From: a virus
Strand: one strand, 5' to 3'
Virus record (IMG/VR): IMGVR_UViG_3300041956_000313
Location: 28,727-92,726 of that record
Length of the DNA: 64,000 nucleotides
The notes under the pieces are model-generated. The model saw only the letters and a program-made list of their open reading frames with translations, was not told the origin of the DNA and did not search any database. Positions within the stretch are counted from its first letter, which is position 1. The number at the start of each line of letters is the position of its first letter. A program made the translations under genes and the position numbers. Below, one piece after another: positions 49,268-62,976 of this stretch.

Positions 49268-49419
49268 CTTCTTTTGAGCGGCGATCGTGCAGCCGGCCCC
49301 TCTGCGGTAGCCGGCCGGCTGCGCACCGCTACAAACGCTCTATAGCCGTTTTATGAGGCGTGTGCGGCCGGACATCCGTCACAAAACCCTACAAATGTCG
49401 GTGTTTCCTGAAATCAAGG

Positions 49420-49494
49420 TGTAAAAATTACAACAAAATCAATTGGTTATTTCGTACAAAAGTAGTTGCATGAACAACGTGTACACATTACTAT
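49420..49494 (+). promoter_or_regulatory. Strong sigma70 promoter (early-type) with UP-like element
   Basis: TTGCAT (49466-71), 17 nt, TACTAT (49489-94); A/T-tract-rich sequence upstream. Confidence 0.8.
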
Positions 49495-49500
49495 TTGTGC

Positions 49501-49870
49501 CTGCAGAGACGAACTGCAAACCGGAACGAAATCCGGACCGGCCGAGACCGAAGCTGCAAGCTGAGGCAGAAGACGGCAACCGACAAAGTCCGCACTAATC
49601 TGCGGTTCGAGCGGTAAACGGTGAAGACGCCAACGGCCGGCGGCAGAAGTGCGAAGGGTCGAGGCGGTAGAACATCGTGACTAGCAAGTCAGCGCGTGTG
49701 CACTTCTCCGGACGTGCAATCGTCAAAGCAACTCGTCCCACACGCCCGCATCTGTCTTACTCACGAGCTCACGCAACGTAAACACTGATGACCCCGCGGT
49801 TATGAGACGCGCGACATCAGAACGCACGTTAAAGCGCATTCACACGAGTGCGCTTCAATGTGCGTTATCT
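49501..49870 (+). ncRNA. Long structured 5' leader
   Basis: No convincing ORF; hairpins TGCAG/CTGCA, CCGGA/TCCGG, CCGGCCG/CGGCCGG, AGAAGTGC/GCACTTCT and a ~21-bp stem at 49821-49866. Confidence 0.55.
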
Positions 49871-49887
49871 ACACAGAGGGCAAGGCA

Positions 49888-50079
49888 ATGAACGTCAAAC
49901 TCACGTCAAACGGCAAACCTGTAAGGTACGTCAAGAAGCAAGTCACAGAAGGGCCAAAGGCCGGCAAATGGGTCGTCGTCGATACCATGAAAGGCGATAG
50001 CGTTTGCACTAATCCAACAAAAGAATCTCAAGCTTCTGATACGGCGAATTACTGGAACAAGAGAGAGGCAGTAGGATAA
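49888..50079 (+). CDS. Hypothetical early protein
   Basis: GAGGG SD, ATG 49888. Confidence 0.6.
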   Translation: MNVKLTSNGKPVRYVKKQVTEGPKAGKWVVVDTMKGDSVCTNPTKESQASDTANYWNKREAVG

Positions 50080-50282
50080 TGAGCACGACATACGAAGTGA
50101 CGTACGGCGGCAAGACGTTCACGAAGACGGGACATAAAGTTGCCTACACCCATGCACTCGTCAGAGTCACTGACGGAGTTGCTTGGGTGACTAGCTGGCA
50201 CACGAGCAAGGGCGCAGCCGAGAAGCGTCTTGCAGGATGGAGTGATGCGACACTCGTCGAAGTTCGGAGGGCAAAGAAATGA
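50079..50282 (+). CDS. Hypothetical early protein
   Basis: TAATG coupling. Confidence 0.6.
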   Translation: MSTTYEVTYGGKTFTKTGHKVAYTHALVRVTDGVAWVTSWHTSKGAAEKRLAGWSDATLVEVRRAKK

Positions 50283-50563
50283 AAGATTCAACGTTCTGTG
50301 TTGCGTGTGGCGGTGTAGACGGCGACCACACAACGCGCTGTGACAGAGACACGGCGATTATCACGAGCACGCCGGAGCGAGTGGCCGCCGCACTCGTGAG
50401 TGCGTTCCGGCTCAACATCGGTGCCAACTTGCACGGACGTGACGGCAAGCGATGCACTGAGGCGATGATGACTGCCTTCGCTATAAGCGAAGCGAGCGCC
50501 GAAGAGTACTTGCTGCGATCGGCCGTGAGGATGCGTGGCGAACCCGCTGACGAGCCGGTGTAA
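50279..50563 (+). CDS. Hypothetical early protein (ends inside hammerhead 1)
   Basis: GGAGGG SD; C-terminal EPADEPV is encoded by ribozyme sequence. Confidence 0.6.
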   Translation: MKDSTFCVACGGVDGDHTTRCDRDTAIITSTPERVAAALVSAFRLNIGANLHGRDGKRCTEAMMTAFAISEASAEEYLLRSAVRMRGEPADEPV

Positions 50564-50597
50564 CTCCGGCGAAACACGGCGCAAGCCGTGTCCGGGT
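50542..50597 (+). ncRNA. Hammerhead ribozyme 1 (type I)
   Basis: ACCCG-CUGACGA-GCCGG(UGUAACU)CCGGC-GAAA-CACGGC(GCAA)GCCGUG-UC/CGGGU; predicted cut after 50592. Confidence 0.93.
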
Positions 50598-50619
50598 AAA
50601 ACAATCGGAGGGACTTGAA

Positions 50620-51090
50620 ATGGCTAAGGTAACAAAGGCACAGCTTCGGCATGTCGCGGATGGCGTGACTGACAAGCAGATGATTGAGATTCTCGCGCGC
50701 TTCTTCTGTCGCACCTCGGTGCTCGTGCTGAAGCGTGATGAGAAGTTTCCAAGTGCCGGCAACATCGCGAGCTACGCACATGATGTGCTCGCGGGCTCGA
50801 AGATTCTTTGGGACGTTGGTGAAGTGATCGACAACGTCTCGACGGATTACGAGAAGAAGCCACCGGCGCGCATCACCGGGCCGCTCAAGCGAGGACGTCT
50901 TGAGGGTCGCATGCGGTACTACCGCGAGGTCGCGCTCATGGAGCTGCGCGCCGGTGACGAAGTCGATCAGGGCGTAGTCGTTCGCGTCTCGAAGAAGAAC
51001 GAAGCACCGTCTGCTGCCACTCGCATCGTCTTTCTTGAGGAAGGGCAGTATGTCGAGTCTGTCGGTGCCAAAGTTCGAGTGTGGGAGTGA
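50620..51090 (+). CDS. Hypothetical early protein
   Basis: GGAGGG SD just downstream of ribozyme 1. Confidence 0.7.
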   Translation: MAKVTKAQLRHVADGVTDKQMIEILARFFCRTSVLVLKRDEKFPSAGNIASYAHDVLAGSKILWDVGEVIDNVSTDYEKKPPARITGPLKRGRLEGRMRYYREVALMELRAGDEVDQGVVVRVSKKNEAPSAATRIVFLEEGQYVESVGAKVRVWE

Positions 51091-51092
51091 GA

Positions 51093-51148
51093 GCCCGCTG
51101 ATGAGTCCGTGAGATTCGGACGAAACACTCCTCACGGAGTGTCCGGGT
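51093..51148 (+). ncRNA. Hammerhead ribozyme 2 (type I)
   Basis: GCCCG-CUGAUGA-GUCCG(UGAGAUU)CGGAC-GAAA-CACUCC(UCAC)GGAGUG-UC/CGGGU; cut after 51143. Confidence 0.93.
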
Positions 51149-51169
51149 AAACAATTAGTAGGAGGGCAT

Positions 51170-51403
51170 ATGAACAAAGAACGACGCAAGCGACTTGACG
51201 GCCTCGTCAGCCGTGTCGAGGAACTCAAAACGGAGTTTGAGTCAATCAAGGACGAAGAACAGGAAGCGTATGACAACCTGCCGCCCGGCATTCAAGAGGG
51301 TGACAGCGGCGAGAAGATGCAGACTGCTCTGAGCGCGCTCGAAGACATCGACACGTCTTTGCAGGAAGTTCTCGACAAGATCAAAGAGGCTAAGGAGGCG
51401 TGA
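51170..51403 (+). CDS. Small acidic helical phage protein
   Basis: MNKERRKRL...EEQEAYDNLP..IQ motif; GGAGGG SD. Confidence 0.75.
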   Translation: MNKERRKRLDGLVSRVEELKTEFESIKDEEQEAYDNLPPGIQEGDSGEKMQTALSALEDIDTSLQEVLDKIKEAKEA

Positions 51404-51404
51404 C

Positions 51405-51590
51405 ATGCATTACGAAATCAATGTCTCACTGAACGGCAAGCATTACTTCGGCACGCACGAGCGATCACTGTTGAGCGAGCAGGACACGCGCACGTTGCTG
51501 CGACAGTTTCGTGAGTCATTTCCGGAAGCGAGAGGCTTCAAAGTGGAAGCTGTGAAGGTTGAAAAAGTCACCACTTACTTGAAGTGGTAG
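51405..51590 (+). CDS. Hypothetical early protein
   Basis: AGGAGG SD; YEINVSLNGKHYF.T. Confidence 0.7.
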   Translation: MHYEINVSLNGKHYFGTHERSLLSEQDTRTLLRQFRESFPEARGFKVEAVKVEKVTTYLKW

Positions 51591-51645
51591 CCTGCTGATG
51601 AGTCCGTGAGATTCGGACGAAACGTCGCGCAAGCGACGTCCGGGT
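51590..51645 (+). ncRNA. Hammerhead ribozyme 3 (type I)
   Basis: GCCUG-CUGAUGA-GUCCG(UGAGAUU)CGGAC-GAAA-CGUCGC(GCAA)GCGACG-UC/CGGGU; cut after 51640. Confidence 0.93.
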
Positions 51646-51671
51646 AAAACACAAACGTAGAGGGTACGAAG

Positions 51672-52076
51672 ATGGAACGAGCAAAGATCGGTGACGACCT
51701 GTTCCGTGTCGTCTGTGTGACGTTCTTCTGTGATGCGTCAGGTGATCAGCAGATTGCGACGTCGCGAGGCGAGTGGACCGCTGCGCAAATCAAGTCCTCT
51801 GTCATCGAGGACTCGGAGAAGTACGGCAAGTGCGGTGACTACGGGCAGCGATACTTTCACAAGGATGGTAGCGCAGTTCTGGAAGTGATCTACTGTGGCA
51901 TGAGCACTCAGCCGTTGCGCGTGCACGTTCCGAGTGCGTATCGGCGGTCCGATGACGTCGGTTGTCCTACTGAGGACTCGGATGCTTGCCGCAAGCAGCT
52001 CGCGAAGCTGTTTGACGTGCGCTGTCCGAGCGTTCCGCAGGCAGAGTTCACTAGGAACCGGAAGCAAGCCCGCTGA
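51672..52076 (+). CDS. Hypothetical early protein
   Basis: GAGGG SD; stop codon is the UGA of the ribozyme 4 core. Confidence 0.65.
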   Translation: MERAKIGDDLFRVVCVTFFCDASGDQQIATSRGEWTAAQIKSSVIEDSEKYGKCGDYGQRYFHKDGSAVLEVIYCGMSTQPLRVHVPSAYRRSDDVGCPTEDSDACRKQLAKLFDVRCPSVPQAEFTRNRKQAR

Positions 52077-52123
52077 TGAGTCCGTGAGATTCGGACGAAA
52101 CGTCACGAGAGTGACGTCCGGGT
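52068..52123 (+). ncRNA. Hammerhead ribozyme 4 (type I)
   Basis: GCCCG-CUGAUGA-GUCCG(UGAGAUU)CGGAC-GAAA-CGUCAC(GAGA)GUGACG-UC/CGGGU; cut after 52118. Confidence 0.93.
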
Positions 52124-52157
52124 AATTTTCTACTCGAATCAACTAGAGGGCAGGACA

Positions 52158-53120
52158 ATGTCACATGGTGTAAAGCAGATGGCGTACGTGGGCGACACTC
52201 CGTGGCACGGGCACGGCGACGTCATGAAGCCTGGCATGTCGCGCGCAGATTGGGAGAAGGCTGCCGACATGAATTGGGAGGTGAAGCGTCAGACGATGTT
52301 TTACGAAGTCGGCGGGCGCAAGTACAAGGTGGGGATCCGCGATGTGCTCGTGCGCAGCGATGATCCGACGACAGTGCTTGGCGTCGTCGGCCAGGACTAC
52401 AAGCCGGTGCAGCCGAAGCAGGTCATGGACTTCTTCTTCGATGCCACGGACAAGACCGACTTCGAAATGGAGACGGCCGGCACGCTGCAAGAAGGGCGGC
52501 GCTTGTGGGGGCTCGCGCGGATGAAGGACGGGGACATCGTCATCGGCAAGAAAGATGTCATCAAGCCGTATTTATTACTTGCCAGCTCGACGGACGGGTA
52601 CAGCGCGACGTTCGCCGCGTTCACCACGGTGCGTGTCGTGTGCTGTAACACGCTCGAAGCCGCGCGCCGTGACATCGGTCAGGATCAGGTGCGCATCTCG
52701 CATTCGGTTGCGTTCGATCCGAAGGCGGTGCGGGCAATGCTCAGTGGCGCCGAGAAGACTTACGGTGAGTTCCGCAAGAACGTCACTGTGCTGTCAAAGC
52801 GGAAGGTGTCAAACGCTGAAGCGGTCGCTTACTTCGTTGACGTGCTCAACAAGAAGGACAGTGAGAAGCTCGACGTCAAGGACGCGTCGACGTTCGGCAA
52901 GAAGATGAACAAGATGCTGGAACTGTTCAAAAACGGGCCGGGTGCGAACCTCGACTCTGCGAACGGCACAGCGTGGGGTCTCGTCAACGCGGTTACGCGT
53001 TACGCAGACTTCGAGGCGAAGGCAGAGAACTCAAGCAACCGGCTGACGGCTGCGTGGTTCGGTGCCGGCGCGAAGCTGAAGGAACAGGCGATGCTGAAAG
53101 CAATGGCGATGGCAGCATGA
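52158..53120 (+). CDS. DUF932/DUF945 family protein
   Basis: MAYVGDTPWHG, AGTL..GR..W.LA, VRVVCCNTL, GTAWGLVNAVT.Y.D. Confidence 0.88.
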   Translation: MSHGVKQMAYVGDTPWHGHGDVMKPGMSRADWEKAADMNWEVKRQTMFYEVGGRKYKVGIRDVLVRSDDPTTVLGVVGQDYKPVQPKQVMDFFFDATDKTDFEMETAGTLQEGRRLWGLARMKDGDIVIGKKDVIKPYLLLASSTDGYSATFAAFTTVRVVCCNTLEAARRDIGQDQVRISHSVAFDPKAVRAMLSGAEKTYGEFRKNVTVLSKRKVSNAEAVAYFVDVLNKKDSEKLDVKDASTFGKKMNKMLELFKNGPGANLDSANGTAWGLVNAVTRYADFEAKAENSSNRLTAAWFGAGAKLKEQAMLKAMAMAA

Positions 53121-53290
53121 CAAAGCAAGAGATGATTGAGGAACTGGAGCGTATGCGCGGCGCCGAAATAGGATCGTCGCAGTTGCTGCGGACGTGCAGC
53201 GCTGTGTTCGTGGAAAAGATGTTTTTCGGCAGAATTCGGATAGTTCTTCGGGAGGAAGCGAGACATGAAGAAGATGAGCAACGAAGATGA
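53117..53290 (+). CDS. Hypothetical small protein
   Basis: ATGA overlap with the DUF932 gene stop. Confidence 0.5.
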   Translation: MTKQEMIEELERMRGAEIGSSQLLRTCSAVFVEKMFFGRIRIVLREEARHEEDEQRR

Positions 53291-53390
53291 GCAGCACAAC
53301 CGGTATATGGCCGGCCTGCTCTTTCTCGGAGGAATTGCGGTGATCGTTGTCATAGCAATCATCGCCGGAAGCCTGCTGATGAGTCCGTGA
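53265..53390 (+). CDS. 41-aa single-TM protein (not in ORF track)
   Basis: GGAGG SD; MKKMSNEDEQHNRYMAGLLFLGGIAVIVVIAIIAGSLLMSP; stop in loop II of ribozyme 5. Confidence 0.55.
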   Translation: MKKMSNEDEQHNRYMAGLLFLGGIAVIVVIAIIAGSLLMSP

Positions 53391-53426
53391 GATTCGGACG
53401 AAACGCGACTCAAGTCGCGTCCGGGT
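53371..53426 (+). ncRNA. Hammerhead ribozyme 5 (type I)
   Basis: GCCUG-CUGAUGA-GUCCG(UGAGAUU)CGGAC-GAAA-CGCGAC(UCAA)GUCGCG-UC/CGGGU; cut after 53421. Confidence 0.93.
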
Positions 53427-53449
53427 AAACAACACAGATGGAGTTACGT

Positions 53450-53680
53450 ATGAGGAACATTCCGAACGTTCCAGAGCCGCTCACCGTCGTCGCAGACCTT
53501 GCTAACTGCATCGTCGACTCGAACGGCAGGAGAGTGATTGAGTTTGCATCGTGGATGCCACTCAATTACGAGTTCATTCAAGCGACAATCGCGGGACTGC
53601 GGTCGCAAGGGTTTGAAGTGAAGATCGAGGGGCGGCTGGAGAGGAGGTTGATGAGCGAACCCGCTGACGAGCCGGTGTAA
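53450..53680 (+). CDS. Hypothetical early protein (ends inside hammerhead 6)
   Basis: GGAG SD before ATG 53450 (alternative start 53438); C-terminal EPADEPV. Confidence 0.6.
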   Translation: MRNIPNVPEPLTVVADLANCIVDSNGRRVIEFASWMPLNYEFIQATIAGLRSQGFEVKIEGRLERRLMSEPADEPV

Positions 53681-53714
53681 CTCCGGCGAAACACGACGCA
53701 AGTCGTGTCCGGGT
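53659..53714 (+). ncRNA. Hammerhead ribozyme 6 (type I)
   Basis: ACCCG-CUGACGA-GCCGG(UGUAACU)CCGGC-GAAA-CACGAC(GCAA)GUCGUG-UC/CGGGU; cut after 53709. Confidence 0.93.
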
Positions 53715-53734
53715 AAAACACAGTTGGAGGGCAT

Positions 53735-54235
53735 ATGAAGATTGTGAAAGTGGTCGGACTCGAAGTGACTACGGAGTCTGAGATAGTGCTGAAGTCGGCA
53801 CTGCTCATGTACGTGCTTCATTGTGAGGCAGAGATGAAGCGCGACACGTCAGCGTCAGGTGTCGCGAAGTCATCTAAGGCTCGGAGCATGGCAGTCGAGT
53901 TCTTGTCTCAGATTCAGAAGACGACGATAAAGGGCTACACGTTCGATGTGCAGAGCGCTGTGCGTGAATCGCTGCCTGACCTGTTCCGTTTCTGTCCGTG
54001 CGGACTTCCGTATCACGGTAACGGCTGCGCGAACGAGCCGGGCGCGCATCGCGTGCATTGCCTCGTGTTTGATGACGGTCGCAAAGTCGTACTCAACTCG
54101 CGGTGCGCGACTGAGAAAGATGCGCGCGAGTTACTGTCTGATCGGATCGCGAACAAGGAGGCGTTCAAGGATGAGCGTTACGAGTACGCACCTAAGGTGG
54201 TGTACGACCGTGCACACTTGGGAGTCGTGACATGA
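53735..54235 (+). CDS. Hypothetical early protein
   Basis: GGAGGGCATATG start context. Confidence 0.7.
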   Translation: MKIVKVVGLEVTTESEIVLKSALLMYVLHCEAEMKRDTSASGVAKSSKARSMAVEFLSQIQKTTIKGYTFDVQSAVRESLPDLFRFCPCGLPYHGNGCANEPGAHRVHCLVFDDGRKVVLNSRCATEKDARELLSDRIANKEAFKDERYEYAPKVVYDRAHLGVVT

Positions 54236-54687
54236 ACACTGGAATGTTTCTGACGGTCGGCTTCGCGCGCGCTCCGGAAGTCGTGATGATCAGCGAACAG
54301 GAACTCACGTTTCTCGACATGCGCATCAGACGTGAAGGGCACACGCGCAAGGCGTATGAACCGGTCTTCGGTGAGGGCGTTGATCACGTCTGGCCGTGCT
54401 GGTCGAAGGACCTCATGACAGACGTCGCGATGAACTACACAGGAAGCTTTGAAGTTCCTACGCGGTGGTTCGCGTCACGGATCGCGCTGGGCATGACGTA
54501 CTCGCGCGAGGAACTCGAAAAGGGCGGAGACGGTGACACGGCTAAGCCCGTGAAGCCGGTTCCGAGAAAGCCGCCTCCGGCACCGGCGCAAAAGCCGGAG
54601 ACGAAGACGGAAGAACGTGAAGCCGTGCTTGCAGGTGCGGTTGGTGATCAAGCTCCGCGGCTTCGACCGCGGCCGAGGAGAAAGTGA
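54232..54687 (+). CDS. Hypothetical early protein
   Basis: ATGA overlap; Pro-rich C-terminus. Confidence 0.65.
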   Translation: MNTGMFLTVGFARAPEVVMISEQELTFLDMRIRREGHTRKAYEPVFGEGVDHVWPCWSKDLMTDVAMNYTGSFEVPTRWFASRIALGMTYSREELEKGGDGDTAKPVKPVPRKPPPAPAQKPETKTEEREAVLAGAVGDQAPRLRPRPRRK

Positions 54688-55103
54688 TGGAAACGAAGTT
54701 GCTGAAGCCGTGGGCGATCGTGCAAGTTAACCGTGGCACGTACACACATGTCGGTGAGCTCGTCAGCTTCCCATGTCCTGGCGGCACGATCATGGTGCGG
54801 CAAGTGCCTGGACTTGCCGCCACTGCGATTGAGTTGCCACTGTCGGCGATTCTGCAGCCGGTCGAGATTCGGTGGCTGCACTACGCTGAAGTGTTCGGGA
54901 CGACGTCGTTCCCGGTCGATATGCTTCGGCGTGAGAACGCAGCACCGGCTGACTTCGATCCTGAGGAGACGGTGCTGAGTAATGACATGCGCCGTCATGT
55001 CATTGTGAAAGCATCGACGCGGCGTGTGCCACAGTGGAACGTCGATCGATGGAAGTCGTTCGGCTGGACTCTGAGTGAGCTGCGTACTGATCGGTGGGGG
55101 TGA
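54684..55103 (+). CDS. Hypothetical early protein
   Basis: GAGGAG SD; FPVDMLR...RWKSFGW motif. Confidence 0.65.
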   Translation: MMETKLLKPWAIVQVNRGTYTHVGELVSFPCPGGTIMVRQVPGLAATAIELPLSAILQPVEIRWLHYAEVFGTTSFPVDMLRRENAAPADFDPEETVLSNDMRRHVIVKASTRRVPQWNVDRWKSFGWTLSELRTDRWG

Positions 55104-55106
55104 AAC

Positions 55107-55352
55107 GTGGGTCTTCATGCAGTCGACAACTTGAGTCATCTCGCGCATCAGGAGAAGGAGCCGGAGGTTGAGGACCGGTATACGTACGACGAGTTTGTGA
55201 TCGTCGCCAAGAACGGTCCGGTCGGCACGCAGTTAACTGTGGAGACGTACTACGGTGACGTGACTGCGTGGGAGGTCGCACGAAAGCACTTTCTGCGCCT
55301 GTTCAACGAACAGAAGAAGCCGGTTGTTTTGCTGGGCAGAGTCTTTAACTAA
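55107..55352 (+). CDS. Hypothetical early protein
   Basis: Fills the gap; stop abuts ribozyme 7. Confidence 0.55.
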   Translation: MGLHAVDNLSHLAHQEKEPEVEDRYTYDEFVIVAKNGPVGTQLTVETYYGDVTAWEVARKHFLRLFNEQKKPVVLLGRVFN

Positions 55353-55407
55353 CCCGCTGATGAGTCCGTGAGATTCGGACGAAACGTCGCGCAAGCGACG
55401 TCCGGGT
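55352..55407 (+). ncRNA. Hammerhead ribozyme 7 (type I)
   Basis: ACCCG-CUGAUGA-GUCCG(UGAGAUU)CGGAC-GAAA-CGUCGC(GCAA)GCGACG-UC/CGGGU; cut after 55402. Confidence 0.93.
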
Positions 55408-55423
55408 AAACACTGGAGGGCAT

Positions 55424-55768
55424 ATGAACGCCAAAATTGGAGCGAAAAAAGTCATCGTCGACGATTTGAGGGTGACCGTTGTGACGGACACGTTCTGCGA
55501 TCGTCCGCGATTGACCGTTGACAAGCACGAGCATGTCCCGAGTTGGATGCGTCCGGGCACTGCTGTGAACGGTTACGCGCATGTTGATGTGACTCTGGAG
55601 AGCACGGGCAGCGCAGTGTTCGCAGTCGTCGAAGGGCACAAGACTGGAAACAAGTCCGTTCTTGTCACGATTCCGGAGCAAGCGACACGCGAACTCTATC
55701 GCATGCTGAAGAAGCATTATGACGAGAAGGCGGCTGCGATGAAGGAGAAGTCTCATGGCACGGATTGA
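55424..55768 (+). CDS. Hypothetical early protein
   Basis: GGAGGGCATATG start context. Confidence 0.7.
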   Translation: MNAKIGAKKVIVDDLRVTVVTDTFCDRPRLTVDKHEHVPSWMRPGTAVNGYAHVDVTLESTGSAVFAVVEGHKTGNKSVLVTIPEQATRELYRMLKKHYDEKAAAMKEKSHGTD

Positions 55769-56054
55769 CCTGGAGACCGGCCCTGAAGGGCCGAAGCACG
55801 ACCCATATCACTATGATGAGTGGACTGTCACTCTCACGTCGGGCAGCATAGTCCGTATTCATGACGGCGGATGGGTTGAGTGGGTCGAGACGGAGCGGCC
55901 GGTTGTGCGTGAAGTCAGCATCGGCGGCAGCAACACCCGCATGGCGGCGCGCAGTGGCAAGCGGGGTACCCCGGAGAGTCGCTACTTTTCTGCAAGTGTG
56001 GGGAGTTGCTCGATTACTCGTTCAATAGGTCAGCAATCGAGTAGAGCCCGCTGA
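55755..56054 (+). CDS. Hypothetical early protein
   Basis: AGGAG SD; stop is the UGA of the ribozyme 8 core. Confidence 0.55.
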   Translation: MARIDLETGPEGPKHDPYHYDEWTVTLTSGSIVRIHDGGWVEWVETERPVVREVSIGGSNTRMAARSGKRGTPESRYFSASVGSCSITRSIGQQSSRAR

Positions 56055-56101
56055 TGAGCCGGTGTGATTCCGGCGAAACGCGACCTCGGTCGCGTACGGG
56101 T
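56046..56101 (+). ncRNA. Hammerhead ribozyme 8 (type I, GUA triplet)
   Basis: GCCCG-CUGAUGA-GCCGG(UGUGAUU)CCGGC-GAAA-CGCGAC(CUCG)GUCGCG-UA/CGGGU; cut after 56096. Confidence 0.9.
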
Positions 56102-56130: not shown

Positions 56131-56400
56131 GTGAAGAAATCAGTACCTATTGTTGAAGTGAAAGACATCAACGGGCTCGTGTATCTGTTCATCGAAGGCG
56201 CACAGCAGCCGATGTGCTGGACCGGAGATGAGGAGCACAACGCGTGCAGTCATGCTGCAGCGATTCTCGGCACGCGCTTCAGGAAGCTCAATAACGAGCG
56301 TCGCACGCTGCGAGAGAGTCCGGTGACGTTTGACAGCTTCGCTGCCGACGTTTCAGTGAAGATCCGGGCCGCGGCTTCTTACCTGGGAGTCGCAGCATGA
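56131..56400 (+). CDS. Hypothetical early protein
   Basis: GGAGGG SD, GTG 56131. Confidence 0.6.
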   Translation: MKKSVPIVEVKDINGLVYLFIEGAQQPMCWTGDEEHNACSHAAAILGTRFRKLNNERRTLRESPVTFDSFAADVSVKIRAAASYLGVAA

Positions 56401-56936
56401 GCCTCTGTGTTGTCGGTCGTCTGATCACGGCAGGACAGATGATCTACCTGCGGAAGTGCCGAGAAACGGAGCTCCGACAGAGCTTTGTGTGGTCGAGTGA
56501 TCGTGATCATGCGCGCTGGATGACTGCTGAGGTCGCAGTGCGCGTCATGCGGGCAGCTCGTGAGTTCTGCAGTGCTCCTACTTTCGCACTCGACAAGCGC
56601 GGGCAAATCATCTCGATCGGACCGCGCATCTTGTCGAAGGCAGAGCAGAGGGACGCGAAGCAGGCACTGCGTGCGAGCACTCGTGCCTACAAGAACGTCG
56701 GTAAGACTCTGCAGATTGCTGCAGAGTGGCACAAAGGGCGGTATCTCACGACATTGAAGCCTCGTCGTCGGAATACGGAACATGTGAGCACCACTCGTGC
56801 TTCGGAGGCAGAGGTCGTCGCAGACATGGTGACGTCGACGGTCGCGCGGCTGCTCCGGCTGCCGAAGCGCCCGCGGAAGATTTACGTAGGGAAGATTTAC
56901 GTAGTTAGCAACATCAAGCGGAGGGCACGCAAATGA
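56397..56936 (+). CDS. Hypothetical basic protein
   Basis: ATGA overlap. Confidence 0.6.
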   Translation: MSLCVVGRLITAGQMIYLRKCRETELRQSFVWSSDRDHARWMTAEVAVRVMRAAREFCSAPTFALDKRGQIISIGPRILSKAEQRDAKQALRASTRAYKNVGKTLQIAAEWHKGRYLTTLKPRRRNTEHVSTTRASEAEVVADMVTSTVARLLRLPKRPRKIYVGKIYVVSNIKRRARK

Positions 56937-57205
56937 GAAGTCTGAAGAGTCTGGTGATTGCAGTGTGGGTCGTCATACTGCTGTTTGTGGTCGCTGTGCT
57001 TGCTTCAGAAGCGCACGGCGCTGAGCCGGAGAAGGTGATGGACGACAGCATCATCAAGGAGAGCAGTGACGTGATAGCCGCGCTGAAGTGTCGCAAGCGC
57101 GGTTACAAGTTCTTCGAGCGTCAGCGCGACAGTGACTGGGTCATTTGTCTGAACGACAAACGCTTCGCGCCGTATGCGAAGTCGGTGGAGTCGGTGCTGC
57201 GATGA
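56933..57205 (+). CDS. Hypothetical exported/membrane protein
   Basis: Signal-peptide-like N-terminus. Confidence 0.6.
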   Translation: MRSLKSLVIAVWVVILLFVVAVLASEAHGAEPEKVMDDSIIKESSDVIAALKCRKRGYKFFERQRDSDWVICLNDKRFAPYAKSVESVLR

Positions 57206-57339
57206 CAGCGCAAGAGTTGTATGAGTTGTTGGCCAACATTACGGACGAGCAACTTCAGGAACTCATGCGCGAGTGTGAGAAGCACAAAGTAAATGAGTTT
57301 GTGCGATTCTCACTGTACGAGGGCATTGGCGGTTTGTGA
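57202..57339 (+). CDS. Hypothetical small protein
   Basis: ATGA overlap. Confidence 0.45.
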   Translation: MTAQELYELLANITDEQLQELMRECEKHKVNEFVRFSLYEGIGGL

Positions 57340-57347
57340 GGCAAGTC

Positions 57348-57399
57348 AACGGGACGTGCGTACAGTTAACTCTGTGCGTGCGTCCCGTTTTTTTTTTTT
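57348..57399 (+). terminator. Strong intrinsic terminator closing the early operon
   Basis: CGGGACGTGCGTACAG-TTAACT-CTGTGCGTGCGTCCCG followed by T12. Confidence 0.85.
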
Positions 57400-57413: not shown

Positions 57414-58808
57414 ATGTGTGCTCTTGTTGGTGCGGTGTTCAGAGGCAATGTCCTGCGGGGGATGATCCGTACGGCGTTGCAGAGGTCAAAGCAGCGGGGT
57501 CGTGACTCGTCTGGCGGAGCTTTGTTGGCTGATAGCCGGGGCTGTGCGCGTCGGAGTGCTGCTGGTGTGAGCTTCGAAGATTTTCCCTTGACGATAGAGC
57601 CTGACGAGAAAGCAACGTTGATTGCCAATTTGCGCGCCGAACCTACGCACGAGTTTCTCGCGACGAAGACTGAGGACGACATACAGCCTTATGTCGTTGG
57701 CAAGTGGCTCATCGTGCACAATGGCACGATCGCTAACGACAAGGAGCTGACAGCGCAATACGGCTTTCAGCGGAAGACTTCTGTCGATAGTGAAGTGATT
57801 GCACATGTGCTCAACCACTTCAATCCTCTCTTTCACGAGCAAAGTGTGGGGGAGGTGTTATTCGAGAATTTGCGCGGCTCATTCGCTGTTCTAGTTGCGC
57901 GCTATGATCATCCGGGCGATTTGATTGCAGTTACCAACTACAAGCCGCTCTATTTTCGGTATGAATCAAGCGGAGTTGTCATTGCCTCACAGCGTGCCTA
58001 CCTCGACCGTGTTTCGGATTACGAGCCACATTTACTGCATGACTTTAACGCTGCCATACACGAAATACGCCCGTACTCCGCCTATTCCTTTTTTATCGGC
58101 CCTCGTGTGTCGGCTGTGTCAATGCGACAGCACTTGGCGGTGGGCAAGCGCAGAGCTCTTGCCGTGTGCAGTGGTGGACTCGACAGCTCTGTGGCTGCTG
58201 CAGCTTTGCGTGCCAAAGGTGATGAGGTCACGCTGATGCATTACCTGTACGGCTCGCGCGCTGATCGACGTGAGTGTGACGCGGTGGCATCAATCAGTGC
58301 TGCGATTGGAGCTCGTTATCTTGTGACGCCGCTCGACTTGGGACTTCGCCCGAGCGATTCCCCGCTGCTCAACACCGACGCATCTCTTGCAGTTGGCAGC
58401 GCCGGTGCAGAGTTTGCACATGAGTGGGTGCCCGCACGCAACCTAATCATGCTTGCGCACGCGACTGCGTTCGCTGAAGCGAATGGTTATGACGTCATCT
58501 GCCTCGGAAACAATCTCGAAGAGTCGAATAGTCACCCGGACAATGAGATGGAGTTCATCAACCGCTTTAACGCACTTCTGCCTTTTTCTGTAGGCGTAGA
58601 CAAACATGTCGTAGTGGAGATGCCGGTCGGTCACCTCATGAAGCGCGAAATAATCCAACTCGGAGTGAGCCTCAATCTGCCATTGCAGCACACATATTCG
58701 TGCTACGAGGGGCGTACGAATCACTGTGGGAAGTGCGCGTCTTGTTACTTGCGCCGGTCCGCATTTAGAATTGCGGACGTCGAGGATCCTACTACATACG
58801 ACGCCTGA
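57414..58808 (+). CDS. queC: Gat-QueC fusion (class II glutamine amidotransferase + preQ0 synthase)
   Basis: N-terminal MC, RGRDS, HNGTIAN, DSE, GSFA; then SGGLDS, VPARN, PDN, TYSCY...CGKCASC; GGAG SD before ATG 57414. Confidence 0.92.
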   Translation: MCALVGAVFRGNVLRGMIRTALQRSKQRGRDSSGGALLADSRGCARRSAAGVSFEDFPLTIEPDEKATLIANLRAEPTHEFLATKTEDDIQPYVVGKWLIVHNGTIANDKELTAQYGFQRKTSVDSEVIAHVLNHFNPLFHEQSVGEVLFENLRGSFAVLVARYDHPGDLIAVTNYKPLYFRYESSGVVIASQRAYLDRVSDYEPHLLHDFNAAIHEIRPYSAYSFFIGPRVSAVSMRQHLAVGKRRALAVCSGGLDSSVAAAALRAKGDEVTLMHYLYGSRADRRECDAVASISAAIGARYLVTPLDLGLRPSDSPLLNTDASLAVGSAGAEFAHEWVPARNLIMLAHATAFAEANGYDVICLGNNLEESNSHPDNEMEFINRFNALLPFSVGVDKHVVVEMPVGHLMKREIIQLGVSLNLPLQHTYSCYEGRTNHCGKCASCYLRRSAFRIADVEDPTTYDA

Positions 58809-58822
58809 GGAGGCAAAAGAAA

Positions 58823-59731
58823 ATGTGGATTGAAAACGGCGGAACGGCAGAGGGCGCAGCGTCTTCAGAGGGGGCGAGTGCCTCTGATCGGAAGTCGTCG
58901 CCCAAGGGACTCAAGGGCAAGGGCGCAACTCTGCTCATTCTCGATCCAGCGGATGTCGAGTTTGAAGCAGACTTCAATCCGCGCTCACAGGACCTGGGAG
59001 ACATCAAAGAGCTCGCGCGCGGCTTGTGGGAGAGTGCGCAGGCTGGTCGTGATATTTCTCCGATCCACGTACGACGTGAGGGCAGCAAGTACATTGTTGT
59101 CGATGGGCACCGGCGTGTGCTCGCGGCGCGTGAGGCAAAGATCGACCTGCCTGCGCTTCGCGTGAAGCCGACTGACGAATCCGACACGCTCATACGCGCG
59201 CTCATCGGCAATCAGGGCAAGCCGCTCATGCCCGTGGAAGAGGCGCTCGCGTTCAAGAAGCTCGTTGATGAGCACAAGGTCAAGCCGAAGGACATCGCGC
59301 GCGCCACCGGCAAGTCGCTTGCCAACGTGAAGGAGCGACTGCAGCTTGCCGAGGGTGACCGTGAAGTGCTCGAAGCGGTCAGCAAGCGTGAGATTTCCGC
59401 GAGCCTCGGCGCGGGCATTGCCCACAAGTCGAAGGGCAACAAGAAGAAACAGAAGAAGCTCGTACAGCGCGCTAAGTCGTCGAAGTCCGAGAAGCGGCGT
59501 GTGCACGTCGAGGTCGGCCTCAACGCGCCTGACAACAAGCGCAAGCTTGCTGTGTCGAAGTACACCAAGCTCTTCGAGAAAGAGGCGAAGGCGTATAACT
59601 TGAAAGCGAGTGGCGTGAAGGTCACCACAAAGGCGATGAACTACCTGAAGAAGATGAAGAAGACGCGTAACAGTGTGGCGCGTCTCGGCTACCTTGCCGG
59701 AGTGCTCGCGGGGTGCCTGGGCAAAGTGTGA
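58823..59731 (+). CDS. ParB/Srx N-terminal domain protein with HTH
   Basis: FNPR, PIHV, VVDGHRRV.A, L.PVEEA.AF, IARATGKS. Confidence 0.85.
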   Translation: MWIENGGTAEGAASSEGASASDRKSSPKGLKGKGATLLILDPADVEFEADFNPRSQDLGDIKELARGLWESAQAGRDISPIHVRREGSKYIVVDGHRRVLAAREAKIDLPALRVKPTDESDTLIRALIGNQGKPLMPVEEALAFKKLVDEHKVKPKDIARATGKSLANVKERLQLAEGDREVLEAVSKREISASLGAGIAHKSKGNKKKQKKLVQRAKSSKSEKRRVHVEVGLNAPDNKRKLAVSKYTKLFEKEAKAYNLKASGVKVTTKAMNYLKKMKKTRNSVARLGYLAGVLAGCLGKV

Positions 59732-59900
59732 TGCGCTGAAGTTTTCTCGTCGTCCGGGGACAGCCCTCCCCTCGACGGCGGCCCGCGTGGGACACCTATG
59801 CGATAACTCCGGTACGCGCTCCGGGGAGTGGTGTGACTTAACCGGTGGAGAGTAACCGGTTTGTTTTAACGGGTCGCAAACAAAGTGGGCGGGGGCAAGA

Positions 59901-60695
59901 ATGACAACGCACGAGCTTGGCGTGCTTTCTGTATTTCTGACAATCGACGGTGAGTGCAACGAACACGGTCCGGGCATCTGGTCCGTGTTCGTTCGGTTTA
60001 GAGGGTGTAGTGTTGGGTGTATCTGGTGCGACACGAAATACTCGTGGCGTGACACGGGCGGCACTGTTCTTACACCGCACGGTCTTGCTGACTTGATTAC
60101 GAAGATCGGCAAGGGGTGCACGAAGGTGACGCTCACAGGCGGTGAGCCGCTAGAGCAAGATTGGGCTACATTAGGAATACTCATACGCCAGCTCACGTCA
60201 CGGATGTCATCGGTCAGTGTCGAGACCTCTGGCACGTACGACGTAGAAAAGTTTCGAGTGTCAGCCGGAGTGCCGCACGACCCGAATCTCTCTTTTATCG
60301 TCGACTGGAAGCTCAGCTCAGCGAAGGCAAAGCCCAATCAGCCTTTGTCGATGTACGTGAAGCTTCGTGAGCGAGACCGCATCAAGTTCGTGGTGAGCTC
60401 CGAAGCGGATTTCAATGAAGCTGTCGAAGCAGCGCGCGCGATCCGCGCTCGCAATCGACGCACGCCCATTTACTTCAGTCCTTCCTTCAATGCGCTGGCT
60501 CCGGCATTGCTCATGGAATGGATGCGCAGAGCGGGCGTGCAAGTCGACGACATTCGGCTCAATCTGCAGATACACAAGATCATCTGGCCGGGCGACTCTC
60601 GTGTTGAGGAGGACGAGGGCGTCGACTTCACGAAGCGCTCATTAGGTCGTGAGCAATTCATAGAGCGAGCACGCACGCCTGACGAGAAGCTGTAG
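59901..60695 (+). CDS. queE: 7-carboxy-7-deazaguanine synthase QueE (radical SAM)
   Basis: TIDGE, FVRFRGCSVGCIWCDTKYS, LTGGEPL, VETSG, IKFVV, LQIHKIIW. Confidence 0.93.
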   Translation: MTTHELGVLSVFLTIDGECNEHGPGIWSVFVRFRGCSVGCIWCDTKYSWRDTGGTVLTPHGLADLITKIGKGCTKVTLTGGEPLEQDWATLGILIRQLTSRMSSVSVETSGTYDVEKFRVSAGVPHDPNLSFIVDWKLSSAKAKPNQPLSMYVKLRERDRIKFVVSSEADFNEAVEAARAIRARNRRTPIYFSPSFNALAPALLMEWMRRAGVQVDDIRLNLQIHKIIWPGDSRVEEDEGVDFTKRSLGREQFIERARTPDEKL

Positions 60696-60706
60696 GCGTC
60701 CGCATC

Positions 60707-61570
60707 ATGAGGCGCGTGCTGCTGGTCGACTTGTCGAACGTCGCGTGGCGGGCGGTGTGCTCGCATGCAATGCTTTCCCATCGCGGAGAAAACACCGGAG
60801 GTGCGTACGGCTTTCTGCAGATGATTTGCAAGATCGTCAACACACACGACATCAACAGGATAATTGTTTGCGACGACGCGAAGCCCTACCACCGCGAGAA
60901 AGTCTTTCCGACGTATAAATCCGGTCGTGGCACGGTACACGTCAACACAGATAAGGTGGACATGCGTGGCCCCGTGCAGAAGGGCAAAGCGCAGATAGCT
61001 GAGCTGCTCGACTTCTTCGGACAGCACGTGATGCGCGTCAAAGGCTACGAAGCGGATGATTTGATTGCACGTGCCACGCTCAATCTTACCTCTCAGCCGG
61101 CGCGCAGTTGCCGAGTCTTCATTGCCTCAAACGACTCCGATCTTTACTCGTTGCTGTCGAAAGAGCGCAAAGTGGCAATGTGCAAGAAGGACGGTCTCTA
61201 CACGTTCAATGACTTCATGGCCGAGTACGAAATCTGGCCGGTCAAGTGGCCCCGCGTATTAGCGCTCTGCGGCTCGCATAATGGTGTTCCAGGCATTCCG
61301 GGCGTCGGAGTGAAGACGGCCGTCAAACTCGTCTCTGAGAGCGCGTCCGACCGTTACCTAGCCCGTACATATCACCTTGATGTAGAGACTCTCTCACTGC
61401 GGGAAAAGCTGTCGACTTACCCGTGGGAAGACGGCTTGCAGGAGGTCAAGTTCCGGTGTGTGCCGCTGATGTATGAGCGACGCCGGACAATAGCGTGGAT
61501 GCACATGCGGTTCGGAATCGACTTTGCTCCGTACATGCAATCAGCTTTTGAATTGTTAGCGACACCATGA
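60707..61570 (+). CDS. 5'-3' exonuclease / flap endonuclease
   Basis: LLVD, YK.GR, YEADDLIA, SNDSDL, PGIPGVGVKTA. Confidence 0.9.
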   Translation: MRRVLLVDLSNVAWRAVCSHAMLSHRGENTGGAYGFLQMICKIVNTHDINRIIVCDDAKPYHREKVFPTYKSGRGTVHVNTDKVDMRGPVQKGKAQIAELLDFFGQHVMRVKGYEADDLIARATLNLTSQPARSCRVFIASNDSDLYSLLSKERKVAMCKKDGLYTFNDFMAEYEIWPVKWPRVLALCGSHNGVPGIPGVGVKTAVKLVSESASDRYLARTYHLDVETLSLREKLSTYPWEDGLQEVKFRCVPLMYERRRTIAWMHMRFGIDFAPYMQSAFELLATP

Positions 61571-62976
61571 ACCTAACCGGCGCACTTCAGGAAAACATTC
61601 TGACGCTACTGTGCTTCGATGCGCAGTCAGCGGCGATCATTGTTGGTTCGATAGATGTGGAACTATTCGAGAACTCGATATACCGGAACATTGCCAAAGC
61701 AGCGGTAGGGTATTTGCGGAAGTACAAGCAGCCTGCTGCTGATCATCTGCCAGACTTGCTTGAGGACCATCTAAAAGACGAGCGCAAGGGCAAGCTCTAC
61801 GTCCGCGCACTGCAGGACCTAAAAGAGCTGTCCGAGAAGATCAATTCTGAGTATGTGCTCACACAGCTATCCACGTTTGTTCGTCGTCAGTCGCTTCGTA
61901 AAGCAATCACAGAAGCGGCCGCGCACATAGACGACATAGATCAGGCTGAGTCGATAATCCTGAAAGGAATAAAGCGACGTCTGGAGTTGTTCAAGCCCGG
62001 ACTGTACGTCTCTGACAGCAGCCTGCTGGACATCAACGATTTCGATAGACCGGACATGTCACCGACTGGCATCAAAGCGCTTGATGACTTGGGAATTCAG
62101 CCGGCACGCAAAGAGCTCTACACGATTCTTGGGCCGCGTAATCGGGGTAAGACGTGGTGCTTTGTCAATATAGGCAAGTATGCGTCAATGGCTTCTCATT
62201 GGAACGTCGTGCACATCACGCTTGAGATGAGAGACATGCTGGTGTGGGGAAGATACCTGCAGGCGTTCATGTCGCTTACTAAGCGTGAGGCTGGGTCGGT
62301 GCAGATTCCGCAGTTGATTCGGGGCAAGCGGGGAGACTTAGAAAACATCGTTTTCAAGAGTCTTGAGCGACGACGTGCCATAAGTGATCCGGTAGCGCGC
62401 AAGAAGATTAAGGAGAAGTTTGAGGGCGTGAAGGGTCGAATGAACATCATCGTCAAGCAGTTCCCGACGTCTCAATTGACGACAGATGGCTTGGTTGCTT
62501 ACATCGAATCGCTTGAAGCAAGTGAGGGCTTTATTCCGGACATGGTTCTTGTTGACTATCCGGAGTTGATGAAGCTCGACGTACGTAACCTGCGCGTCGA
62601 CATAGGACGTCAGTTTCGAGAGCTGCGTGGGCTAGCAGTAGAGCGCAACATATCGGTTGTAGGTGCGTCGCAGACGAACAGAGACGGACAGGACGCGAAG
62701 TTGATTACGATGACTCACATGGCAGAGGACATCAGTAAGGCGGACATCTCTGACAACATCATTACCTTGAATCAGACCAAGCATGAAGAACGGTTGGGAT
62801 TGATGCGTGTGCATGCGGCAAAAGTCCGCAATGAGCGTGCCGGTGCTACAGCGTTGCTGGCACAGTCGTTTGCAATAGGACAGTTCTGTCTCGATTCAAT
62901 GTTGTTGGGCAAAGAGTATTGGCCGGTAGTCAACCGGCACAAGAAGCGAGATGCCAATGACGACGAAGACGATTAA
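61567..62976 (+). CDS. DnaB-like replicative helicase
   Basis: Walker A GPRNRGKT, ITLEM, LVDYPELM, ASQTNR, KVRN. Confidence 0.88.
   Translation: MNLTGALQENILTLLCFDAQSAAIIVGSIDVELFENSIYRNIAKAAVGYLRKYKQPAADHLPDLLEDHLKDERKGKLYVRALQDLKELSEKINSEYVLTQLSTFVRRQSLRKAITEAAAHIDDIDQAESIILKGIKRRLELFKPGLYVSDSSLLDINDFDRPDMSPTGIKALDDLGIQPARKELYTILGPRNRGKTWCFVNIGKYASMASHWNVVHITLEMRDMLVWGRYLQAFMSLTKREAGSVQIPQLIRGKRGDLENIVFKSLERRRAISDPVARKKIKEKFEGVKGRMNIIVKQFPTSQLTTDGLVAYIESLEASEGFIPDMVLVDYPELMKLDVRNLRVDIGRQFRELRGLAVERNISVVGASQTNRDGQDAKLITMTHMAEDISKADISDNIITLNQTKHEERLGLMRVHAAKVRNERAGATALLAQSFAIGQFCLDSMLLGKEYWPVVNRHKKRDANDDEDD

Follow-up and report, generated by a model that had tools for sequence, protein, structure and literature searches.

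Eight Predicted Type I Hammerhead Ribozymes Punctuate an Accessory-Gene Operon of an Uncultured Phage

An operon of 21 co-directional genes in an uncultured phage (IMG/VR virus record IMGVR_UViG_3300041956_000313, positions 28,727–92,726, a stretch of 64,000 nt referred to here as the window) carries eight elements, HH1 to HH8, which by all sequence and structure criteria tested are predicted type I hammerhead ribozymes, i.e., hammerheads with an open stem I. Each element is exactly 56 nt long, and all lie on the + strand, sense to the genes, within 50542–56101, at the eight starts proposed in a first-pass annotation of this DNA (50542, 51093, 51590, 52068, 53371, 53659, 55352, and 56046). Judged from sequence, it is probable (about 0.72) that the eight hammerheads are active within the operon mRNA, which would thereby process itself into nine mRNAs. 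The hammerhead core cleaves after an NUH triplet, leaving a 2',3'-cyclic phosphate on the upstream product and a 5'-OH on the downstream product. The evidence for this reading, the points that weigh against it, and the alternatives are considered here.

Sequence and Pairing of the Hammerhead Units

The eight units are listed below with their scores from a covariance model (R1) that was built from the units themselves and scanned with filters off.

50542–50597, + strand: HH1, type I hammerhead; 80.2 bits; predicted cut after 50592
51093–51148, + strand: HH2, type I hammerhead; 80.6 bits; predicted cut after 51143
51590–51645, + strand: HH3, type I hammerhead; 83.3 bits; predicted cut after 51640
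52068–52123, + strand: HH4, type I hammerhead; 81.7 bits; predicted cut after 52118
53371–53426, + strand: HH5, type I hammerhead; 83.4 bits; predicted cut after 53421
53659–53714, + strand: HH6, type I hammerhead; 79.8 bits; predicted cut after 53709
55352–55407, + strand: HH7, type I hammerhead; 84.9 bits; predicted cut after 55402
56046–56101, + strand: HH8, type I hammerhead with a GUA cut site; 77.6 bits; predicted cut after 56096

A partial core pattern (CTGANGAG, a gap, and GAAAC) occurs eight times in the window, against 0.30 occurrences expected and a count of eight in none of 100 shuffles, and it has no further occurrence in the whole contig of 69,208 bp. In the ungapped alignment of the units (A2) every conserved hammerhead position is invariant in all eight: C3 U4 G5 A6 N7 G8 A9, G12 A13 A14, the A15.1-U16.1 pair, and a residue other than G at position 17 (H17). 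N7 is U or C, so that the core reads CUGA(U/C)GA and then GAAA; the G10.1-C11.1 pair closing stem II (alignment columns 13 and 29) is G-C in 8/8 units, and the A-U pair at the base of stem III is likewise unchanged throughout. Seven units have GUC as the triplet at the cut site, and HH8 has GUA.

Three helices with a total of 17 pairs make up each unit, and all 136 of the 136 pair cells across the eight units are standard. Stem II exists in two versions (five and three copies) and stem III in six different sequences, always paired, just as the first-pass annotation had described them. Compensatory changes, in which both sides of a pair differ, are found in six pairs (stem II, two; stem III, four). 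The covariation score, which is based on eight paralogous copies within one genome, is 0.468 versus 0.207 for shuffled alignments, none of 500 of which reaches 0.468; sliding the 3' partners by 1–3 columns lowers pairing to 17–42% and leaves 0–1 pairs with changes on both sides. Stem I has only 5 bp, and its two halves are mutually compatible among all eight units; loop II has 7 nt and a UGAGAUU-like sequence that is similar across unrelated arrays. When the units are folded in isolation, the hammerhead junction is both the minimum free energy (MFE) structure and the centroid structure in all eight cases. The R1 model gives the units 78–85 bits, and the next best score in the window is 13.6 bits.

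Placement of the Units within the Operon

Twelve gene junctions in the operon overlap or are no more than 3 nt apart, and are therefore read as translationally coupled; eight are gaps of 54–81 nt. Each of these eight gaps, the only ones longer than 3 nt, holds a hammerhead, and none is empty. The units thus split the 21 genes into nine blocks of 3, 1, 2, 1, 3, 1, 4, 2, and 4 genes, the division into blocks of one to four that had been proposed before.

49888–50079, 50079–50282, and 50279–50563, + strand: block 1, three overlapping small genes; the last stop codon is in loop II of HH1; no family match
50620–51090, + strand: block 2, one gene (156 amino acids), called from its open reading frame (ORF) and Shine-Dalgarno (SD) context
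51170–51590, + strand: block 3, two genes (77 and 61 amino acids; phrog_4068 and phrog_18878, no function assigned)
51672–52076, + strand: block 4, one gene (134 amino acids); the stop codon is the first UGA of the HH4 core
52158–53120 (DUF932), 53117–53290, and 53265–53390, + strand: block 5, three genes; the last stop codon is in loop II of HH5
53450–53680, + strand: block 6, one gene (76 amino acids); the stop codon is in loop II of HH6
53735–55352, + strand: block 7, four genes (166, 151, 139, and 81 amino acids), overlapping or 3 nt apart
55424–56054, + strand: block 8, two overlapping genes (114 and 99 amino acids); the last stop codon is the first UGA of the HH8 core
56131–57339, + strand: block 9, four overlapping genes (89, 179, 90, and 45 amino acids)

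The stop codon of the upstream gene lies inside the ribozyme at five of the eight junctions, where it is supplied either by the first UGA of the core (HH4 and HH8) or by a UGA or UAA of loop II (HH1, HH5, and HH6); at two junctions it overlaps the ribozyme by one base, and at one it is 2 nt upstream. At every junction it is found 29–53 nt 5' of the cut site, and cleavage would therefore never yield a message that lacks its stop codon. On the 3' side of the cut, CGGGU (8/8) is followed by an A/C-rich spacer, an SD-like GGAG or GAGGG, and a start codon; the distance from cut to start codon is 21–39 nt, which places the first base of the start codon at +22 to +40, as anticipated, at all eight units. 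The placement of the units is non-random, since they fill every gap longer than 3 nt, are all sense to the genes, and keep stops 29–53 nt 5' and starts 21–39 nt 3' of the cut.

Similarity among the units extends beyond the ribozyme. Five units have an identical 29-nt stretch in common, a 77-nt stretch that includes 15 nt of the upstream ORFs is 91% identical between HH1 and HH6, and a motif of ~15 nt that starts at the SD and extends into the first codons is repeated past HH2, HH6, HH7, and HH8. Because this motif recurs and the HH1/HH6 identity reaches into the ORFs, the repeated entity is the whole intercistronic module, beyond the catalytic fold alone. At HH1 and HH6, the C-terminus and stop codon of the upstream ORF come from the module. 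The otherwise unrelated ORFs 50279–50563 and 53450–53680 end in the same seven residues, encoded at 50543–50563 and 53660–53680 by HH1 and HH6; the two ORFs have this ribozyme-encoded C-terminal peptide in common owing to the near-identity of the two units. It is the only peptide that gene blocks have in common; no paralogy between blocks was found.

Arrays and Single Units in Other Phages

A degenerate pattern containing the stem I 3' strand of the window retrieved 67 stretches from IMG/VR; searching these with R1 led to other arrays, in which type I units were then counted by a structural scan. IMGVR_UViG_3300033153_007262 has 10 type I hammerheads in 6.7 kb (contig 49362–56080), and IMGVR_UViG_3300015371_000033 has 11 in 4.7 kb (contig ~24800–29500). 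The major head protein of the window phage has no match in either contig; DUF932, at 33% identity, is the only operon protein in common with the 10-unit contig, and there is none in common with the 11-unit contig. Both arrays nonetheless have the same order of stop codon, ribozyme, leader, SD, and start codon and the same strand logic as the window, and the 10-unit array also has a DUF932 gene and the stem I sequence of the window. They differ in being denser, with mostly a single gene between units, and in having a leader of their own; the leader between ribozyme and SD is array-specific and homogenised within each array. The upstream stop codon is found at −4 to +19 nt relative to the ribozyme start, and for 19 of the 21 units a start codon follows 18–37 nt past the ribozyme end; in the remaining two, a simple search for an SD plus a start codon found one start at 7 nt and none for the other. 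Stem I sequences in these arrays differ between neighbouring units.

The stem II/loop II subtype of the window occurs in at least 120 metagenomic contigs; among the contigs listed, most have a single unit and a few have two to five. One unit of this subtype, scoring 65.9 bits with R1, is present in the cultured Ralstonia phage C22 (OR538033.1, ~33140–33195). There the first gene in a rightward operon of small genes has its stop codon at the start of the unit, and the annotation covers the unit only within a "hypothetical protein." Since it is cultured, phage C22 could serve as an experimental model for a single hammerhead after an early gene.

Clustered hammerheads that flank genes in prophages were described in 2011 (Perreault et al., 2011, PLoS Comput Biol; PMC3088659); they cut polycistronic transcripts of ~2 kb in vitro, and cleavage by one set was also seen in vivo once it had been cloned. 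Hammerheads near phage-like genes also cleave in living Desulfovibrio (PMC8782182), and reviews repeat the transcript-cutting idea while calling the role of bacterial and phage hammerheads unresolved (PMC6765202; PMC6155905). The clusters of Perreault et al. resemble the present array in that several same-sense units border individual genes or short gene groups, which vary in identity, in phage DNA, in an accessory-gene context (ardA there, DUF932 here), and in the proposed role, the cutting of long phage transcripts into mRNAs of operon or gene length (PMC3088659). They differ in that the one cluster for which the consulted passages give a size is triple, with tested fragments of ~2 kb, whereas here eight type I units built on one template occupy 5.6 kb, upstream stops lie inside the ribozyme, and the leader is near-standard. 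The novelty claimed for a gene-punctuating array in the first-pass annotation is therefore lost: the arrangement was published in 2011 with the same proposed role and in vitro cleavage (PMC3088659), and it recurs elsewhere as the 10- and 11-unit arrays. The array in the window is a dense example of an arrangement already known in phages since that year.

Operon Boundaries and Phage Context

Three further features delimit the operon.

49466–49494, + strand: candidate σ70-type promoter, with hexamers that match 3/6 and 4/6 of the consensus
49495–49887, + strand: ORF-poor leader of ~390 nt with strong predicted structure, preceding the first gene
57348–57399, + strand: intrinsic terminator that closes the operon (stem 57348–57389, 18 pairs, 10 of them G-C, with a T10 tail)

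The terminator has the position previously given for it, with its 18-pair stem and T10 tail. The leader (49495–49890) folds with an MFE of −149.3 kcal/mol versus −129.2 for shuffles (z −3.29; 0/100 shuffles as stable), and an Rfam search of the same stretch gave no match. A long, near-perfect hairpin is located at ~49820–49870, directly before the first SD. The leader might be an attenuator, a processing site, or a small RNA.

The operon encodes small accessory proteins and is probably early. In searches of Pfam and PHROGs, DUF932 is the sole named family among its products (the protein of 52158–53120; PF06067 at 2.2e-51, phrog_1221), and a few others match PHROGs to which no function is assigned. 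The product of 53265–53390 looks like a small membrane protein, judging from a hydrophobic stretch read by eye. At 56875–56904, within ORF 56397–56936, a 15-nt sequence is perfectly duplicated in tandem, which results in a repeated five-residue motif near the C-terminus.

The contig probably comes from a soil metagenome and is ~77% complete (CheckV). A search for sequencing runs with this DNA listed a single DNA run, from a soil metagenome that may be the source sample, and no RNA run. In the window, the operon sits between a structural module on its 5' side, with genes for the terminase large subunit, portal, major head, and tape-measure proteins, and a 3' module with Gat-QueC-like, ParB-like, and DnaB-like helicase genes; together these genes mark the contig, on gene content, as that of a tailed, siphovirus-like phage. 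The second module begins directly past the operon terminator (57414–62976) with the Gat-QueC-like gene (phrog_10428, plus a QueC-like match), followed by the ParB-like and DnaB-like helicase genes, a set that suggests 7-deazaguanine DNA modification. No close relative of the phage was found by megablast against phages, by a search of viral contigs with the DUF932 protein, or by a search of genome contigs with the portal protein, and the exact 29-nt core shared among units has no match (0) in viral contigs. The nearest cultured portal homologues, at ~33% identity, are all from phages of Proteobacteria; together with the similar hammerhead in Ralstonia phage C22, they give a weak hint that the host may be a proteobacterium and hence an RNase E host.

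Proposed Processing of the Operon mRNA and Alternative Explanations

Under the self-processing reading, each unit would fold during transcription and cleave itself after its GUC or GUA triplet; the 5-bp stem I would then melt and the two halves would part. The upstream piece would retain its stop codon, and the hairpins of stems II and III would form its end, which would bear a 2',3'-cyclic phosphate, so that the 3' end of the upstream mRNA would be the stem III hairpin with a one-base overhang, expected to be a poor substrate for 3' exonucleases. The downstream piece would begin with a 5'-OH on a near-standard, A/C-rich, unstructured leader of 21–39 nt with a strong SD. The operon would in this manner yield nine mRNAs, each a translationally coupled block of one to four genes, in which the initiation region of each block would be insulated from upstream sequence and stability could be set block by block. 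There is a likeness to the RNase III processing of phage T7 early mRNA, where cuts between cistrons divide a polycistronic phage transcript into defined mRNAs, and to synthetic ribozyme insulators such as RiboJ, which standardise the 5' context of each cistron; the analogy is functional only, as the RNA here would cut itself without a host enzyme.

Several observations weigh against this reading. One concerns recognition of the units: no Rfam family reaches its gathering score for any of them. When the threshold is made permissive, five units match RF00163 (Hammerhead_1, clan CL00010) at 16.8–24.7 bits (gathering score, 34), the type III model RF00008 claims two more at 35.2 and 23.5 bits (gathering score, 48.5), and one is unmatched; the sub-threshold matches of 7/8 units to the hammerhead clan count in favour of the reading. 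The units have in common with Hammerhead_1 the open stem I, the core, the G-C pair closing stem II, and the GUC/GUA cut site, and differ in the lengths of two stems; our reading of the alignments is that the shortfall (17–25 versus 34 bits) would come from a stem III that is ~12 nt longer than that of the model and a stem I of 5 bp instead of 6. No other ribozyme class was found in the operon; a Twister-P5 match at 19.9 bits merely overlaps HH6.

Folding in context is also unfavourable. In the MFE structures of the units within 146 nt of native sequence, stem III is kept in 8/8 but stem II in only 4/8 and stem I in 0/8, and a competing 8-bp helix, a possible inactive conformer, is predicted for HH3 and HH5. 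The helix (51612–51645 in HH3, 53393–53426 in HH5) pairs the 3' strand of stem II with the 3' strand of stem III and stem I. These folds are a weak negative, because nearest-neighbour folding ignores the stabilisation of the hammerhead junction. Inspection of the flanks by eye found no complementary or conserved sequence that would provide a pseudoknot or the tertiary contact between stem I and loop II to which hammerheads owe fast cleavage at physiological Mg2+, apart from one A, conserved in all units, on the 5' side of stem I and a 3' tail rich in A. Since stem I has only 5 bp and no such partner was found, the units may act as slow "minimal" hammerheads at cellular Mg2+. In addition, terminating ribosomes meet the ribozyme where the five upstream ORFs end inside units, and ribosomes terminating there would unfold it, leaving room for conditional cleavage.

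The transcript and its fate add two more reservations. The stretch at 49466–49494, put forward in the first-pass annotation as a σ70 promoter, agrees with the consensus at 7/12 positions and is not listed by a consensus promoter scan, and the genes upstream of it are also on the + strand, so that read-through from them may enter the operon; because the promoter match is weak and the upstream genes share its strand, a single transcript of 7.9 kb from one promoter is only an assumption. The effect of a 5'-OH on the decay of the downstream mRNA depends on the host, because a 5'-OH protects against the 5'-monophosphate-dependent RNase E, whereas in Bacillus the 5'-OH product of the glmS ribozyme is a target of RNase J1.

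The ribosome and folding results bear most directly on the possibility that cleavage is conditional, with ribosome traffic, Mg2+, or co-transcriptional folding setting the fraction of transcripts cut and thereby the dosage or timing of the nine blocks. It would account for the five stops inside ribozymes and the two more that overlap by 1 nt, for a stem I that is outcompeted in all eight context folds, and for the competing helix in HH3 and HH5, and regulated cleavage is an option raised for phage hammerheads by Perreault et al. (PMC3088659). Yet the eight copies have no conserved ligand-binding or switch element in common, the thermodynamic folds leave junction stabilisation out of account, and the near-identical design of the units argues for uniform behaviour, so that this explanation is considered unlikely. 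Still less support can be given to the view that the units are catalytically dead repeats, whose hairpins serve as 3' stabilisers, RNase III or RNase E sites, or translational spacers, or that they produce circular RNAs through religation of stem I; the sub-threshold Rfam scores and the short stem I are in keeping with dead repeats, but such repeats would not keep every catalytic nucleotide in 8/8 copies while the stems drift. Circularisation gains from the interchangeability of the stem I halves in all eight units, which would allow the ends of an excised block to re-form a hammerhead, but Perreault et al. sought spliced or circular products and report none (PMC3088659). As a general design circular RNA was rejected, as stem I halves are not interchangeable between neighbours in the other arrays. 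Dead repeats and circular RNAs alike are thus regarded as very improbable.

The repetition of the whole module leaves one more explanation to be weighed, that ribozyme, leader, and SD are mainly a mobile or recombinogenic cassette at the DNA level, which swaps accessory genes and for which RNA cleavage is a side benefit or payload. The 29-nt identity in five copies, the HH1/HH6 similarity, and the recurring SD-to-start motif are in its favour, as are the homogenised leader peculiar to each array and the otherwise unrelated gene content of the arrays. In an all-against-all comparison of the fetched loci, 9.2% of the internal ends of homology blocks fall within a hammerhead versus 2.0% of random positions (~4.5-fold), a comparison that is uncontrolled for intergenic position and for redundancy between loci. 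A hammerhead-bounded indel of 283 nt separates one locus (L161) from two related ones (L097 and L124), but most slots that vary between related loci have a hammerhead on one side only. No close relative of the phage was found with which to compare cassette content, and the strictly kept catalytic nucleotides and covarying stems show selection on the RNA; a role mainly at the DNA level is accordingly quite doubtful.

The breakpoint figures and the indel fit the idea that the modules might in addition act as recombination joints for gene shuffling, a lead of low probability. DNA near-identity between module copies spans 29–77 nt, and the PeSL cassettes of T4-type phages offer a likeness to the hammerhead module as gene-shuffling joints. 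Carried further, the unit of stop codon, hammerhead, leader, and SD could be a self-propagating intercistronic cassette, at once an RNA insulator and a recombination joint through which unrelated phages would exchange accessory (possibly anti-defence) genes; this is a speculative proposal with the odds well against it.

Implications

The array opens no new question, and the phage that carries it is uncultured. With its strong internal covariation it is a well-defined addition to the type I examples, and the same architecture is shown in unrelated phages. Among natural cases, arrays of this kind argue most clearly that hammerheads may serve as protein-free devices for mRNA processing and insulation: one template is used eight times, in every uncoupled junction, with stop codons built into the ribozyme.

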